A stretch of DNA of 64,000 nucleotides, taken from Candidatus Binatia bacterium (lineage in GTDB: Bacteria; Desulfobacterota; Binatia; Bin18). Shown here in pieces: positions 36,696-42,439 of this stretch. The notes under the pieces are model-generated. The model had not been told where the DNA came from, ran no database searches, and saw nothing but the letters and a program-made list of their open reading frames with translations. The position numbers and the translations under genes are program-made. Location: contig OY761159.2 in the NCBI GenBank assembly GCA_963664395.2, positions 4,096,001 through 4,160,000 of the forward strand, given 5' to 3'. Numbering within the stretch: position 1 is the stretch's first letter; the number at the start of each line of letters is the position of its first letter.

Positions 36696-38303
36696 TCACT
36701 TCTTGAACAGTCCCCCCTGTTGCCCGGTCTCTCGTTTATGCTTGGGCGCTTTTTTGAACGTGACATTGCCGTGCTGGGTTGGCCGATTGACGCCTTTTCC
36801 GAGCAGCAAGTCCGTTACCGTAAAGAGTTGAATATGCGGGTGGCGCGTTCCCCACGGAGACTCATAAAAGCCCGCGCCCATCGCTTCCGTCCGCATGGGC
36901 TTTGTTGGTTCCTGAAGTGACAGCAGGACTCCGATTTCCGCATTCTCCCTCTCGATGACTCCGCGCAAATCTCGCACATGAGGAACGGAAGTCCGCCCAG
37001 CCTTGACCGAAAAGATGATTTGCTTGGTTTTCGCGCCGGCAGCGTCATCATGGAAATAGAGCCGTCCGTCTATGCCTTGATCCGCTCCTTTCTTCTGCTC
37101 AACAGGGCGGGCGCCAACTAACCCCAAGGCCCACCACTGGAATTGAAAGGGATCATCTTTCCCCAATACTTCCGCGTCCGGGAGGGACACCGGTTCACCG
37201 ACCACTTCATAGCTTTGGGTGATTTCATCGCCAAACGTGTCTCGCAAGCGATGCTTGATAAGACCAATAGCGAGATGGGTGATATCAATACCGATCCAGG
37301 ACCGTTGTAATTTCTGGGCGGCGGCAATGGCCGTCCCACAGCCACAAAAGGGGTCTAAAACAATGTCGCCTTCATTGCTGCTGGCTTTGATAATCCGTTC
37401 CAGCAGCGCTTCGGGCTTCTGGGTCGGGTAGCCTAAGCGTTCTTTAGCTTGGGAATTTATAGGGTCAATATCATCCCAAAGAGCCTGAACTGGCCGACCT
37501 TTCATTTCGTCCCAATATCTTTTGCGTCTAATACCTCCGCTCTTGGTGAAATGCAGTCGCCCCTCGGCGTCCAATCGCTGCATCGTTGTAAGGGGAACGC
37601 GCCACAGGGACCGAGCCCCTTTGTATTCGTACTCATATCCGCCGCCGGACAAGCCTTTTGCTGTGAGATTATCATCAGTCCAGGCTCGCCCATCAGAGTC
37701 GGTGAGCCGGAAACGAGCCTTGTATGCGTCGCTGTAGGATTGGTACTGAGGGGTCCAGGTCCAGTGATCACTTTTAGTGTAGAACAGGATGATGTCGGTG
37801 TTCGCGCCATAGCGGTTTGAGTCGCTGTGGGCGGTGGTCCGTCGCCACGTTATCTCATTGCGGAAATTCGTCAGTCCAAAAATCGCATCCAATAGTAGCT
37901 TGAGATAATGCGAAGCGGTTGGGTCACAGTGGAGGTACAGGCTGCCGGTAGGCTTCAGCGCTCGCCGGAGTTCCACCAAGCGCGGTGCCATCATGGCGAG
38001 ATAGGCCAGCATATCGTTATCGCCAAGAAAGCCGCGAAACGATTGCAGCACCTGCGATACCTGCCCACCGGTCTCAACCACTTCTTGATAGGCTTGTGCC
38101 GATGCTTCGTCCCATTGCCACATGTCGCCGAATGCCTTGATCTGAGCGGCTGCCCGTGATCCGTCCTGTTCGGCAAACAGGACGTTGTAGTCCTGGTCAC
38201 TCTTGAAGGGCGGATCGAGGTACACCAAGTCTATTGACTCGTCTTGGATATAGCGCCGTAAGACATCCAGGTTGTCGCCATAGTAGAGTTTGTTTTTGAC
38301 CAT
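36696..38303 (-). CDS. Beta-class N4/N6 DNA methyltransferase with C-terminal Mrr-like nuclease-fold domain
   Basis: LYYGDNL, YLDPPF, LHCD, GYPTQKPEALL.RII, DPFCGCGT; C-term GADQGIDG...IIFSVKAG...DLRGVIERE. Confidence 0.9.
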   Translation of the reverse strand: MVKNKLYYGDNLDVLRRYIQDESIDLVYLDPPFKSDQDYNVLFAEQDGSRAAAQIKAFGDMWQWDEASAQAYQEVVETGGQVSQVLQSFRGFLGDNDMLAYLAMMAPRLVELRRALKPTGSLYLHCDPTASHYLKLLLDAIFGLTNFRNEITWRRTTAHSDSNRYGANTDIILFYTKSDHWTWTPQYQSYSDAYKARFRLTDSDGRAWTDDNLTAKGLSGGGYEYEYKGARSLWRVPLTTMQRLDAEGRLHFTKSGGIRRKRYWDEMKGRPVQALWDDIDPINSQAKERLGYPTQKPEALLERIIKASSNEGDIVLDPFCGCGTAIAAAQKLQRSWIGIDITHLAIGLIKHRLRDTFGDEITQSYEVVGEPVSLPDAEVLGKDDPFQFQWWALGLVGARPVEQKKGADQGIDGRLYFHDDAAGAKTKQIIFSVKAGRTSVPHVRDLRGVIERENAEIGVLLSLQEPTKPMRTEAMGAGFYESPWGTRHPHIQLFTVTDLLLGKGVNRPTQHGNVTFKKAPKHKRETGQQGGLFKK

Positions 38304-38483
38304 CCCGCTCTCCTTAAAGAGTAAGGTATCTGATTGGGGTTTGTGTGTCTCGCTGGTGTCGCAAATCACTCCGATTTGATACATAGGGCAAGCAGAGTAT
38401 CAAAGTGTCATATGGCAGTATTCAGAGGGATTTATCGGGCACGTAGGGGTGGTCAAAAACGTGTAAAAGCCTGGGCCAATACT

Positions 38484-38795
38484 ATGAAAGAACACTTTGG
38501 CTATCGGTGTGAGTATTGCGAAGGAACGGTTCAAGAGAAGCGCGTTGAGCGGGAAGCTTTCAAACACAGAGCCGGTTTTGTCATCCTGGAGGACGTTCTG
38601 ATTGGAGTCTGTGATACGTGCGCCAATCGCTATTATAGCGCCGAAATCCTCAAACATGTTCAGGCTGTCGCAACCGGTAAAATACTCCCGCAGCGTACTG
38701 AGCACGTTCCAGTTTCCCAAGCTCAAAGAGGGCTGTGTATGAAGCCCTCTTTATCAACTCCCTCGAAGGCCGTCAGGATTCCTCCGCAAAAATGA
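38484..38795 (+). CDS. YgiT/MqsA-type zinc-finger protein
   Basis: CEYC...FVILEDV.IGVCDTCANRYYSAE. Confidence 0.8.
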   Translation: MKEHFGYRCEYCEGTVQEKRVEREAFKHRAGFVILEDVLIGVCDTCANRYYSAEILKHVQAVATGKILPQRTEHVPVSQAQRGLCMKPSLSTPSKAVRIPPQK

Positions 38796-39238
38796 GTCCT
38801 CCCTCTCCCCGCCTTCCGTCCTTTCGTCCAGACGGCTATTTGCCGGAAGGATTGTTCGTCTGTTCCGAGGCCGAAATACTCTTTCGGTTTGGAGCATCGA
38901 ACCATCGCCGGCGACGATTGGCCCTGCGGCTACGGAGGTGGGTTGAATTAGGACAACAGGTCAAAGCTCCGCGTTTGCTCGTGGATGGTAGCTTCGTTAC
39001 TGCAAAAGAGGAACCTCATGATATTGATACGGTTATCTTCCTCCCTATGGATTTTTACCAGCAGATTGAGCGAGAATATGAGCCAGCCTTGGAGCTAGAA
39101 GAGATGTTGCTAACTCGTCGCCCGGAAGAAATCTTTGCCGCAGAGGATGAAGCGGACTGGAATGAATGGGTAGCGTTCTTTAGCCGGACGCGAGAGCGAG
39201 ATGGCCGCCGCAAAGGTTTTGTGGAGATACGTCTATGA
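38792..39238 (+). CDS. Predicted Pol-beta-superfamily nucleotidyltransferase (DUF6932-like)
   Basis: LP.F..DGYLP.G, LLVDGSFVT.K.EP.DID, C-terminal RKGFVEI. Confidence 0.75.
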   Translation: MSPPSPRLPSFRPDGYLPEGLFVCSEAEILFRFGASNHRRRRLALRLRRWVELGQQVKAPRLLVDGSFVTAKEEPHDIDTVIFLPMDFYQQIEREYEPALELEEMLLTRRPEEIFAAEDEADWNEWVAFFSRTRERDGRRKGFVEIRL

Positions 39239-40166: not shown

Positions 40167-40308
40167 GAACCCGTCCGCTCAATGAGGGCTTTCAGCGCGG
40201 TCATGGCTTCGGTGTGTTGAGTTTGGAGTGCGGTCATGGTTTCTTCGTTCTGGGCCTTCTGATCTTCGGACGCTACCCCTAAAGATATCCCAGAGAGGAG
40301 TATTCGTT

Positions 40309-41439
40309 ATGGAAATGTGGATTCGCTTCTGGCCCTTTCTCGCGGTCTTTTCCATAATGGTCACGTGGGAATTCATCTCCCCGCGCCGCATTCTTGCTCA
40401 AAGAAGACAAGAACGCTGGCCTACGAACTTGGGGCTGACGCTGCTCAATGTGGTTTTGGTATGGGCTCTAGTCGGTGCCGTGGCATATATGGCGGCCACT
40501 TTTGCGGCAGAACAACAGATTGGACTGCTGCATTGGGTGTCAGCGCCTTTCTGGTTCGCCGTCCCTGTCACCATCCTCGTTCTCGACTTCGCCCTCTACC
40601 TCCAGCATCGTCTCTTCCATACCTTCCCCTTGCTGTGGCGTTTGCATCAGGTCCACCATGCTGACCTTGGTTTCGATGCCACGACTGGCCTCCGTTTTCA
40701 TCCTATCGAGATATTTCTCTCTCTCGCCTACAAAGCAGTTGTCATTATTGCGCTGGGAGCACCTGTTTGGGCCGCCATCGCCTTTGAAATCATCCTGAAC
40801 GCCACTTCTGTTTTTAATCACGGTAATGTCAGTCTTCCTGAAAGGCTGGACCGGCGTCTGCGTTGGTTCCTTGTGACGCCAGATATGCATCGGATTCATC
40901 ACTCCACACGAGCGGTGGAAACCAATTCAAACTTCGGCTTTTCTGTTCCATGGTGGGATCGGCTGTGCGGAACCTACCGGGCAGAGCCGGCGTTGGGACA
41001 ACTGGGACTTGAGATTGGACTGTCATATTATCGAGCTTCGTTTCACCTCGGGCAGTTATTACTCCTCCCATTTCAGACTCGCATTCCCCTGGAGAAAGCG
41101 TGGAAAGAAATCTCCCCCCTGCAGTTGTGCGAAATGCTGGGAGAAGAAAATCCACCCTATGTGCTCGACGTGCGAGACCTGGGCGAATTTACAGGCGAGC
41201 TTGGGCATATCGACGGGGCCCACTTGCTGCCGGTCTCCGATCTGGACAAACAACTGAACGAGCTGGCTGCCTGTCGCTCCCAAACGGTCGTCCTGGTGTG
41301 AAAGACGGAACGTCGCTCAGGCAGAGCGGCGGACTTGTTGGGGCAAAACGGCTTCTCTTCTCTCCTGGTCCTGTCCGGCGGCATGCTCGGATGGACAGGA
41401 GCAGGGCTGCCCGTATCGCATAAAGCTGACGCTACCTGA
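40309..41439 (+). CDS. Sterol-desaturase/fatty-acid-hydroxylase family protein fused to a rhodanese domain; probable selenocysteine at TGA 41299-41301
   Basis: His boxes QHRLFH, HQVHH, FNH, HRIHH; rhodanese VLDVR..EF....GHI.GA; beyond the TGA the frame continues KTERRSGRAADLL..NGF...VLSGGMLGW..AGLPV to TGA 41437-41439. Confidence 0.85.
41302..41330 (+). promoter_or_regulatory. Candidate bacterial SECIS hairpin
   Basis: 10 nt after the UGA: stem GUCGCUC/GAGCGGC (7 bp, one G-U) with loop AGGCA; apical loop begins 17 nt after the UGA. Confidence 0.65.
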
Positions 41440-41497
41440 CACTCCCTGCCAGGGCGTGCTACATACAGCCGGAGGAGAAAATGAAAGGAGAGAAGAT

Positions 41498-42439
41498 ATG
41501 GCAGAGATACGTGAAATAACCTCCGGCCTGGAATTTCCCGAAGGCCCGATTGCCATGGATGACGGCAGCGTTATCCTGACGGAGATTAAGCGCGGCACGC
41601 TTACGCGGGTCAAGCCGGATGGCACCAAAGAAGTTGTGGCCGAAACGGGTGACGGGCCGAACGGCGCGGCGATTGGACCCGACGGCAAAATCTACGTGTG
41701 TAATAACGGCGGCTTTGAGTGGATCGAAGCCGGTGGGCTGACTGTGCCGCACGGTATCCCTGAAAGCTATACCAATGGCTATATCCAGCGTGTTGATATC
41801 GACACCGGGGCGGTGGAAACGATTTATACCGAGTGCGACGGCAATAAGCTGTGCGGCCCGAACGATATTGTGTTCGATGCTCAAGGCGGCATGTGGTTCA
41901 GCGACTTCGGCAAGATCCGCGACCGCGACCGCGACGTGTGCGGCCTCTATTACGCCAAGACAGACGGCTCGCTCATCAAGGAAGTCGTCTATCCGATCCA
42001 AGGACCGAACGGCATCGGCTTGGCCCCTGGCGATGCGACCCTGTATGCGGCCCAGACCTTTGAAGCCCGGGTGTGGGGCTGGAACATTACCGGTCCGGGC
42101 GAATTGGAGCGCGTGGAAGGGACGGGTGGTCCGCTCCTGGCTGGCCCTGGTGGAGGGGTTCTGGTGGCTGGCTTACCGGGCTATCAACTCCTTGATTCAT
42201 TAGCGGTCGAGGCCAACGGCAACGTGTGTGTGGCGACCATCCTGAATGGCGGCATTAGCGTGTTTGCGCCGGACGGCTCGTCGGTCGAGCATGTGCCCGT
42301 TCCGGGAGACCCGGTGGTGACCAATATCTGTTTTGGTGGCCCGGACCTGAAAACGGCCTATATCACGCTGTCGGGTACGGGCAAGCTGGTAGCCATGGAC
42401 TGGCCGCGTCCGGGCCTGAAGTTGAATTTCACGCGCTAG
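41498..42439 (+). CDS. SMP-30/gluconolactonase/LRE family protein
   Basis: FPEGP, GPNG, PNDIVFD, PNGIGL, DSLAV, TNICFGG. Confidence 0.92.
   Translation: MAEIREITSGLEFPEGPIAMDDGSVILTEIKRGTLTRVKPDGTKEVVAETGDGPNGAAIGPDGKIYVCNNGGFEWIEAGGLTVPHGIPESYTNGYIQRVDIDTGAVETIYTECDGNKLCGPNDIVFDAQGGMWFSDFGKIRDRDRDVCGLYYAKTDGSLIKEVVYPIQGPNGIGLAPGDATLYAAQTFEARVWGWNITGPGELERVEGTGGPLLAGPGGGVLVAGLPGYQLLDSLAVEANGNVCVATILNGGISVFAPDGSSVEHVPVPGDPVVTNICFGGPDLKTAYITLSGTGKLVAMDWPRPGLKLNFTR

Follow-up and report, generated by a model that had tools for sequence, protein, structure and literature searches.

The window analysed here is a stretch of 64,000 nucleotides from Candidatus Binatia bacterium (assembly GCA_963664395.2, contig OY761159.2, positions 4,096,001 to 4,160,000), and positions without further label are positions in it. 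We find that its gene at 40309-41439 very probably (about 0.88) encodes a selenoprotein, with the in-frame UGA at 41299-41301 read as selenocysteine (Sec). This reading follows from the presence of Sec machinery in the genome, a TGA that is kept among relatives, selection downstream of it, alternation of Sec and Cys at its column, and a hairpin found in the Sec forms. The predicted product joins a membrane domain of the fatty-acid-hydroxylase family to a rhodanese whose catalytic position is the Sec. The features are:

40309-41439, forward strand: whole candidate selenoprotein gene, 376 residues (U331), terminating TGA at 41437-41439
40309-41073, forward strand: FA_hydroxylase-family membrane domain, residues 1-255 (Pfam PF04116), mostly helical in the AlphaFold2 (AF2) model
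40603-40617 (HRLFH), 40645-40659 (HQVHH) and 40888-40902 (HRIHH), forward strand: His boxes, read directly and invariant in relatives
41122-41400, forward strand: rhodanese domain spanning the UGA, residues 272-364 (Pfam PF00581, AF2, Foldseek)
41299-41301, forward strand: UGA, probably read as selenocysteine (U331), at the catalytic Cys column in the rhodanese loop U-K-T-E-R-R-S
41302-41436, forward strand: 45 codons past the UGA, completing the rhodanese fold; dN/dS (ratio of nonsynonymous to synonymous substitution rates) 0.15 over 40 codons
41311-41331, forward strand: hairpin like a selenocysteine insertion sequence (SECIS), 8-bp stem CGUCGCUC/GAGCGGCG, loop AGGCA at 41319-41323

Reading frame, Sec machinery and conservation of the TGA

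The gene starts at ATG 40309, with GAGAGGAG at 40293-40300, 8 nt upstream of the ATG, and homologues share the N-terminus MEMWIRFW. An earlier, sequence-only reading of the window had pointed out that the called open reading frame (ORF) stops at the TGA after ...QTVVLV while the frame itself runs on to complete a rhodanese. Sequence and Pfam agree with this. Exactly 45 sense codons follow (KTERRSGRAADLLGQNGFSSLLVLSGGMLGWTGAGLPVSHKADAT) before the TGA at 41437-41439, the residues encoded past codon 331 including TERRSGR... and AADLLGQNGFSSLLVLSGGMLGWTGAGLPVSHK. On the read-through protein PF00581 (Rhodanese) scores 46.3 bits (cut-off 22.2) as a complete domain across the TGA, residues 272-364. 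PF04116 (FA_hydroxylase) scores 99.6 bits (cut-off 31) over residues 87-222, and this score together with the three His boxes (HxxxH, HxxHH, HxxHH) makes the N-terminal part a member of that family. The sequence-only reading also placed the TGA at the catalytic Cys of the rhodanese active-site loop, and comparison bears it out, since the column matches the Cys of four relatives (L049, L108, L118, L128). Here and below, L-numbers are loci compared, P-numbers are database proteins, and G000 is the genome of the window.

G000 comprises 5.04 Mb in 14 contigs and is a metagenome-type assembly, 95.9% complete with 5.4% contamination. The Sec machinery that the reading calls for is present: selA (526 bits), selB (390 bits, cut-off 242) and selD (316 bits, cut-off 125) all score above curated cut-offs, and a tRNA-Sec(tca) gene adjoins selA. 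SelD (contig C1, 4506291-4507208, reverse strand; locus L010) forms the C-terminal part of a 759-residue open frame, the N-terminal half of which resembles, by eye and with no Pfam scan, a pyridine-nucleotide-disulfide oxidoreductase; this SelD has Cys, not Sec, in its glycine-rich loop. A Sec-type formate dehydrogenase was considered as a second selenoprotein of G000 and rejected, as the TIGR01553 matches have no in-frame stop; no genome-wide selenoprotein scan was made.

Conservation was examined in a sample of 201 genomes of the class, including G000 and 16 other genomes of the same genus. The full-length gene is found in nine of those 16, at 88-94% identity, each copy with one in-frame TGA at codon 331. 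The TGA thus stands at the identical column in 10 species-level genomes (G000 and these nine), and also in split genes of other phyla. Of the best 120 database matches, 35 are 300-600 aa long (53-88% identity), and 33 of them end just before the Sec column, which is where a conserved TGA leads gene callers to end homologues. All database copies found are mis-called as truncated 'sterol desaturase'.

Selection past the TGA is purifying. Pooled over the 45 pairs of the 10 genomes, the hydroxylase has a dN/dS of 0.16, the part of the rhodanese that precedes the TGA has 0.30, and the 40 codons that follow it have 0.15. In these 40 codons variable columns fall on codon positions 1, 2 and 3 in the numbers 6, 1 and 16. 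The low ratio and the third-position bias exclude a recent nonsense mutation. No letters other than those of the TGA appear at 41299-41301 in contigs of four public runs, which come from three studies; one of these runs is possibly the window's own source. Two of the covering contigs come from RNA libraries and cover parts of the gene, which does not prove its transcription.

Sec and Cys forms and the hairpin

Outside the genus the hydroxylase (about 272 aa) and the rhodanese are separate genes, with the rhodanese right behind the hydroxylase, as in Methylomirabilota, other Binatia and metagenome loci. Some of the split rhodaneses have the TGA at the catalytic column and a single transmembrane helix near the N-terminus (L019, L020, L023, L124, L125); others, again with the TGA, are joined to a VTT/DedA-type domain (PF09335, 92.9 bits) that precedes them (L109, L111, L113, L114, L129). 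A further Sec VTT-rhodanese, L208, lies on a different contig of its genome from the hydroxylase. The four relatives named above (L049, L108, L118, L128) are VTT forms with Cys at this column, so that the Cys/TGA pairs expected of a selenoprotein family do occur. The motif R-S-x-x-A-A...GGM...W past the TGA is kept in split forms (43-50% identity in other phyla). P0023 (559 aa) contains both PF04116 and PF09335 and ends at the Sec column, which makes it a triple fusion.

Over all loci compared, the column is a stop in 27 and Cys in four of the rhodaneses that adjoin this hydroxylase, a count that includes duplicate genomes; in those without the hydroxylase nearby it is Cys in 90, Ser in one and a stop in none. 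Rhodanese matches elsewhere in Binatia that were flagged with one TGA were rejected as further Sec forms, because all except L208 are Cys-type fusions of a metallo-beta-lactamase (MBL) domain and a rhodanese in which the TGA is the normal stop.

Bacterial SECIS elements are modelled as a stem-loop just 3' of the UGA, with a G in the apical loop and a set spacing. The hairpin that the sequence-only reading had described is present, one pair longer than first written. Its stem begins 9 nt and its loop 17 nt after the UGA, and there is a G at loop position 2, so that it fits the model in position, spacing and apical-loop G. A hairpin stands at the same site past the UGA in 19 of 19 distinct Sec forms, with its 5' arm on the R/K-R-S codons. 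These hairpins use three different pairing registers, and their G-rich loops (AGGCA, AGUCA, GGUCA, CGGUCAA, GGUA, GGU, GGC, GUC, CGGGC, and CGUGC in L022) begin 17-21 nt after the UGA. The hairpin is not formed in any of the four hydroxylase-linked Cys forms, where the 3'-arm position encodes K or T, versus R or S in most Sec forms. Mean fold energy is -13.9 kcal/mol in the 19 Sec forms and -9.6 kcal/mol in 26 Cys forms. The difference has a nominal p of 6e-5, which is too favourable, as the sequences compared are relatives of one another and the Cys controls come mostly from other rhodanese families.

Several further observations weigh against the selenoprotein reading. Taken alone, the window hairpin (-19 kcal/mol, z -2.3) is matched by 7 of 200 shuffles; this is just modestly better than chance, and the weight of the hairpin therefore comes from the comparison with relatives. 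Within one register we saw no double compensatory change, the changes being one-sided (U-G to C-G) with one mismatch (L100, L101). Because the codons under the stem are conserved, the protein motif could in itself account for part of the structure. An Rfam scan of 41200-41450 at E up to 10 gave no family and a chance match to a long non-coding RNA alone. The counts of stop and Cys at the column also carry a search bias, since one of the two patterns used on metagenomes was back-translated from Cys and is blind to TGA forms. No Cys version of the direct fusion was found among the best 150 matches of a full HMMER search, nor by a word-indexed search with residues 258-376, whose six matches are five truncated Sec forms and one MBL-rhodanese. 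In more distant fused groups (among P0008-P0022 and P0044, with 'VTV' and 'LLVPV' endings) the TGA is inferred from where gene calls end. Looking for DNA of these groups across the phylum, with P0017 as query, gave only the window's own genome among 401 at E 1e-90. The one distant hydroxylase-rhodanese fusion read as DNA (L022:3823-4141, the same as L106, genome G046) has the TGA and also a frame shift inside the rhodanese, which is either an assembly error or the mark of a broken copy. Finally, seven of the 16 other same-genus genomes have no match to the gene and six of these seven have SelA, which indicates that the gene is dispensable. Co-occurrence of the gene with the Sec trait within the genus was set aside as uninformative, since SelA is found in 25 of 27 other genomes of the genus, including those six.

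The alternative that survives best would leave the gene a selenoprotein and change its role alone, and is weighed below with the genomic context. It is very unlikely that the TGA arose by nonsense mutation and terminates translation, leaving a 330-residue hydroxylase that works alone and 45 codons that are a decaying remnant. Gene callers do stop at the TGA, seven genomes of the genus do without the gene, and the neighbourhood does hold pseudogenes, in that the methyltransferase upstream is decaying in relatives. A remnant would not keep its TGA in the same place across 10 species-level genomes and split genes from other phyla, nor show such low dN/dS and third-position bias past a TGA that falls on the catalytic Cys; and 33 of 35 database homologues ending one residue before the active site cannot be coincidence. 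A sequencing or assembly error, or genome-wide recoding of TGA as Trp, Gly or Cys, is less credible still, for nothing specific favours it beyond the metagenome-type assembly with its contamination, the same TGA appears in independent assemblies and contigs of several studies, TGA is also the normal stop of this gene and of genes of its relatives, and a dedicated tRNA-Sec and SelB are present.

Fold, membrane side and genomic context

The AF2 model was built from a 49-row alignment and has a mean predicted local distance difference test score (pLDDT) of 79.9 and a predicted template modelling score of 0.69. Its rhodanese block has pLDDT 79-96 over residues 261-370 (88-96 for 271-370). Rhodanese active-site loops follow the pattern CRxGxR. 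In the model a strand at 327-330 leads to U331 and a helix follows at 334-346, which places the Sec at the start of the six-residue active-site loop (K-T-E-R-R-S next) past the central beta-strand. Foldseek matches solved rhodaneses with probability 1.00, among them 5ve3 (root-mean-square deviation 1.3 over 104 columns, 36% identity), 3tp9 (1.1 over 106 columns, 32% identity), YgaP (2mrm, 5hbo) and GlpE; there was no hydroxylase structure among the matches listed. Basic residues follow the anchors of the split forms (RRWR..., RLVRRLK...), which by the positive-inside rule suggests a cytoplasmic rhodanese. The His boxes of the FA_hydroxylase family lie on the cytoplasmic side, and the rhodanese would then be on the same side as these.

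We propose that SelB and tRNA-Sec, directed by the hairpin at 41311-41331, recode the UGA as selenocysteine. The product would be an integral-membrane di-iron (His-box) enzyme of the fatty-acid-hydroxylase superfamily, ending in a cytoplasmic single-domain rhodanese with Sec331 as its catalytic nucleophile. The hydroxylase and the tethered rhodanese probably work as one unit at the cytoplasmic face of the membrane, judging from their fusion, fission and adjacency in many lineages. The link between hydroxylase and Sec rhodanese is a fusion in at least three lineages and an adjacency in others, and the rhodanese owes its membrane tether to direct fusion, to a transmembrane helix of its own or to a VTT/DedA domain. 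In a quick maximum-likelihood tree of 106 hydroxylase domains, the window protein falls in a well-supported clade of rhodanese- and ArsR-linked forms. This clade shares a larger well-supported clade with forms flanked by transferase genes; the clades of VTT-rhodanese and of ArsS-adjacent forms belong to the other half of the tree. Fused and split forms interleave on a FastTree with database proteins, drawn without support values, which suggests several fusion or fission events. Complex prediction for the L118 hydroxylase with the L118 rhodanese domain scored 0.00 and gave no answer, weighing neither way.

Wider context was counted at 75 loci from a genome collection and at 20 Binatia loci. A regulator combining an ArsR-type helix-turn-helix (HTH) with a rhodanese adjoins the hydroxylase at 8 of the 75 and 6 of the 20, and also in L124, L125 and L129; such regulators score below the BigR cut-off (40.7 bits versus 155). 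Examples are L019:2308-2988, L020:2286-2987 and L046:2299-2988; the rhodanese parts of the last two have a CRGPYC loop, and the first has no Cys in the HTH stretch read. VTT-rhodaneses adjoin the hydroxylase at 8 of the 20 Binatia loci. DsrE-like proteins occur in L049, L090, L105 and L128, with a further DsrE-like ORF in L208. Genes of TIGR04283 flank the hydroxylase at 32 of the 75 loci (271 bits versus a cut-off of 182), in Methylococcales and others, and genes of TIGR04282 at 21 (212 bits versus 134); an ArsM-like gene is near it at four. In Methylococcales the hydroxylase stands between the TIGR04283 and TIGR04282 genes.

In 10 Binatia genomes (L232-L241, e.g. L233:167-4941) ArsS, at 432 bits (cut-off 300), is directly beside hydroxylase homologues that are 41-53% identical to the window's. 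Eight of these 10 loci, which were chosen for that adjacency, have a TIGR04283-like gene upstream and four have an ArsM-like gene; the layout resembles an operon, in the order ArsM-like gene, TIGR04283/TIGR04282-like transferase, hydroxylase, ArsS. The hydroxylase may be an unlisted member of the ArsS system. Among the best 150 representatives at 50% identity, moreover, eight (P0132, P0137, P0139, P0140, P0142, P0148, P0150, P0160) have the hydroxylase domain N-terminal to a PAS-histidine kinase, PAS-GGDEF or PAS alone. These are 40-47% identical, with all His boxes intact, and one has an N-terminal Cys rhodanese. A literature search gave no description of PF04116, or of the di-iron 'sterol desaturase' domain, as a sensory input. 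The sequence-only reading had speculated that the protein could couple lipid oxidation to sulfur or selenium transfer, or use Sec as a redox relay. Taken together, the ArsR-rhodanese regulators, DsrE proteins, ArsS/ArsM clusters and sensor-kinase fusions point away from plain lipid metabolism and towards the handling of sulfur, metalloids or redox state.

Within that frame, the role of Sec331 could be to carry sulfane sulfur, selenium or As(III), or else to exchange two electrons as a redox partner whose action is coupled to the activation of O2 by the di-iron site. This role would resemble those in fusions of persulfide dioxygenase to rhodanese and of cytochrome b5 to hydroxylase, and we give it somewhat less than even odds. 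More tentatively, the pathway would deal with chalcogens or metalloids, in the vicinity of the ArsS/ArsM 'arsenosugar' system and with ArsR-type control in other lineages, and not with ordinary fatty-acid hydroxylation. The broadest version, rather unlikely in our estimate, is that the hydroxylase subfamily is a non-lipid membrane module for O2 activation at a di-iron site that always works through a cytoplasmic partner domain directly after it. The partner may be a Sec or Cys rhodanese, or PAS with a kinase or GGDEF; the rhodanese versions would oxidise or load chalcogen or metalloid species held on the selenol, which may be a persulfide, a perselenide or an As(III) intermediate of the ArsS/ArsM pathway.

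The functional part of this picture has evidence against it. The name 'arsenosugar biosynthesis glycosyltransferase' of TIGR04282 and TIGR04283 is an annotation. Co-occurrence with ArsS was dropped as evidence because ArsS is found in 147 of the 201 class genomes, and it is in all 16 other genomes of the genus. ArsS, ArsM and TIGR04282/TIGR04283 genes are absent from the window flanks examined, the copies in G000 being elsewhere in the genome; such neighbourhoods are seen only for relatives at 41-55% identity. The arsM-arsS pair of G000, with a Cys-type C-terminus, is 2.3 Mb from the window, and no homologue of the ArsR-rhodanese regulator or of DsrE was found in G000 at E 1e-8.

The fusions to sensor kinases and GGDEF fit signalling at least as well as metabolism, and they count in favour of a redox-signalling module, the alternative deferred above. 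Here the hydroxylase domain would sense O2, redox or lipid state and the Sec or Cys rhodanese would pass an oxidation or persulfide signal to the rhodanese of the ArsR-type regulator. In the PAS fusions the hydroxylase occupies the usual place of a sensory input domain, and the regulators that adjoin it elsewhere (CRGPYC loop in L020 and L046) could receive such a signal. The regulator has no homologue in G000, and none in the same-genus loci; the kinase-fused forms make up a separate clade (on the FastTree without support values). Sister clades place the hydroxylase in biosynthetic-looking operons with ArsM-like, glycosyltransferase and ArsS genes, where a sensor with no output makes little sense. 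We judge the signalling role improbable, and continue with the reading of a membrane oxygenase that works with its tethered Sec rhodanese.

Neighbouring genes, known systems and significance

Two genes next to the candidate selenoprotein gene were compared within the genus:

41498-42439, forward strand: SMP-30/gluconolactonase/LRE-like (SGL) gene, downstream; Pfam PF08450, 152.5 bits
39483-40166, forward strand: class I S-adenosylmethionine-dependent methyltransferase, upstream; two Cys, no specific family above cut-off

The SGL gene comes right after the selenoprotein gene in each of the 10 same-genus loci (L094-L103) and is 96-100% identical among them. It is the sole neighbour conserved within the genus and has no known link to the selenoprotein. 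The sequence-only reading had suggested the upstream methyltransferase as a possible partner. This does not hold up: the gene is generic, with no specific family, and intact in three of the same 10 loci (own genome included), being fragmentary or missing elsewhere. Remains of it with frame breaks are seen in same-genus relatives; the loci compared include L017, L018, L098, L099 and L103. Its identification as ArsM was rejected (58 bits versus a cut-off of 263, two Cys). Farther upstream are a DNA methylase fused to an Mrr-type restriction-endonuclease domain (36696-38384, reverse strand) and, just before the methyltransferase, a DUF6932 protein (38735-39238, forward strand). These two may be a mobile or defence islet, which would account for the variability of the region upstream.

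YgaV and YgaP share an operon in E. coli. Like the window's relatives, this system pairs a membrane-anchored single rhodanese domain with an ArsR-family regulator; YgaP differs in having Cys, a C-terminal anchor and no hydroxylase partner, and the regulator near the window's relatives is itself fused to a rhodanese. In cytochrome-b5-fused Scs7p/FA2H a hydroxylase is fused to its redox partner, which is a haem domain there and a Sec rhodanese here. The persulfide dioxygenase-rhodanese fusions (5ve3, 3tp9), which rank among the top structural matches to the window's rhodanese, likewise combine an O2-activating iron enzyme with a C-terminal single-domain rhodanese, and they offer a picture of how an iron oxygenase can be coupled to a carrier of persulfide. 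Those are soluble mononuclear-iron enzymes of the metallo-beta-lactamase fold with Cys, whereas the window protein has Sec and is a di-iron His-box enzyme of the membrane. Cys-type fusions of this kind are common in Binatia genomes, and in them a persulfide-dioxygenase-like MBL domain is joined to a rhodanese (contig C1 of G000, 3713923-3714234; L204-L219). At some of these loci (L209, L211, L213) an upstream frame, by eye like a sulfide:quinone oxidoreductase, has an in-frame TGA (HTIULLSCG).

Among family models, the window protein is not an OlsE (NF052566; 83.4 bits versus a cut-off of 475), PF04116 and the three His boxes being common to both, and no NCBIfam model covers the hydroxylase-rhodanese family. 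The ArsS system (TIGR04167) alternates between Sec and Cys as the window family does, and relatives at 41-55% identity are in or beside its clusters. The hydroxylase is not listed as part of that system in the literature and family models searched, including the available portion of PMC12159101.

Five forms of Sec-containing rhodanese-like proteins, including NF041203 and TsoB (NF045694), are tabulated in the accessible parts of a 2026 review (PMC13188914) and of PMC9312934. Like the window protein, these have PF00581 with Sec in or at the active-site loop and were predicted from comparative evidence. The window domain is not a member of NF041203 (rhodanese_LYCAU; 33.4 bits, cut-off 115), whose CxU motif differs from the window loop V-U-K-T in having a Cys two residues before U. 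TsoB is not among the matches listed for the window protein. Forms 2 and 4 of PMC13188914 are described there as 'UxxG, COG0607', and may overlap with the VTT- and transmembrane-anchored relatives. The accessible parts of PMC13188914 and PMC9312934 make no mention of a hydroxylase or desaturase partner, or of a membrane tether, for Sec rhodaneses. Our literature search gave no paper on a hydroxylase or desaturase selenoprotein or on this hydroxylase in arsenosugar clusters; supplements of selenoproteome studies may list the family.

A Sec rhodanese paired with a membrane enzyme of the fatty-acid-hydroxylase family seems to be undescribed so far. As such, Sec-containing rhodaneses form a recognised class, made up, in the parts of the sources available, of predicted soluble proteins with no assigned role. 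In the family described here the Sec rhodanese goes with a single kind of partner, a membrane di-iron oxygenase, and the two make up a concrete system of two components. The family escapes annotation pipelines because its gene is mis-called as a truncated 'sterol desaturase'. Its carriers are widespread soil and freshwater bacteria (Binatia, Methylomirabilota, methanotrophs, Nitrospira, cyanobacteria), and its context suggests that the biology of sulfur, selenium or arsenic includes an O2-dependent step, or a sensor, that has gone unrecognised. If the non-lipid module reading is true, membrane di-iron oxygenases would have their first selenoenzyme, and the handling of organoarsenicals or sulfane sulfur would gain a component that has been missing.

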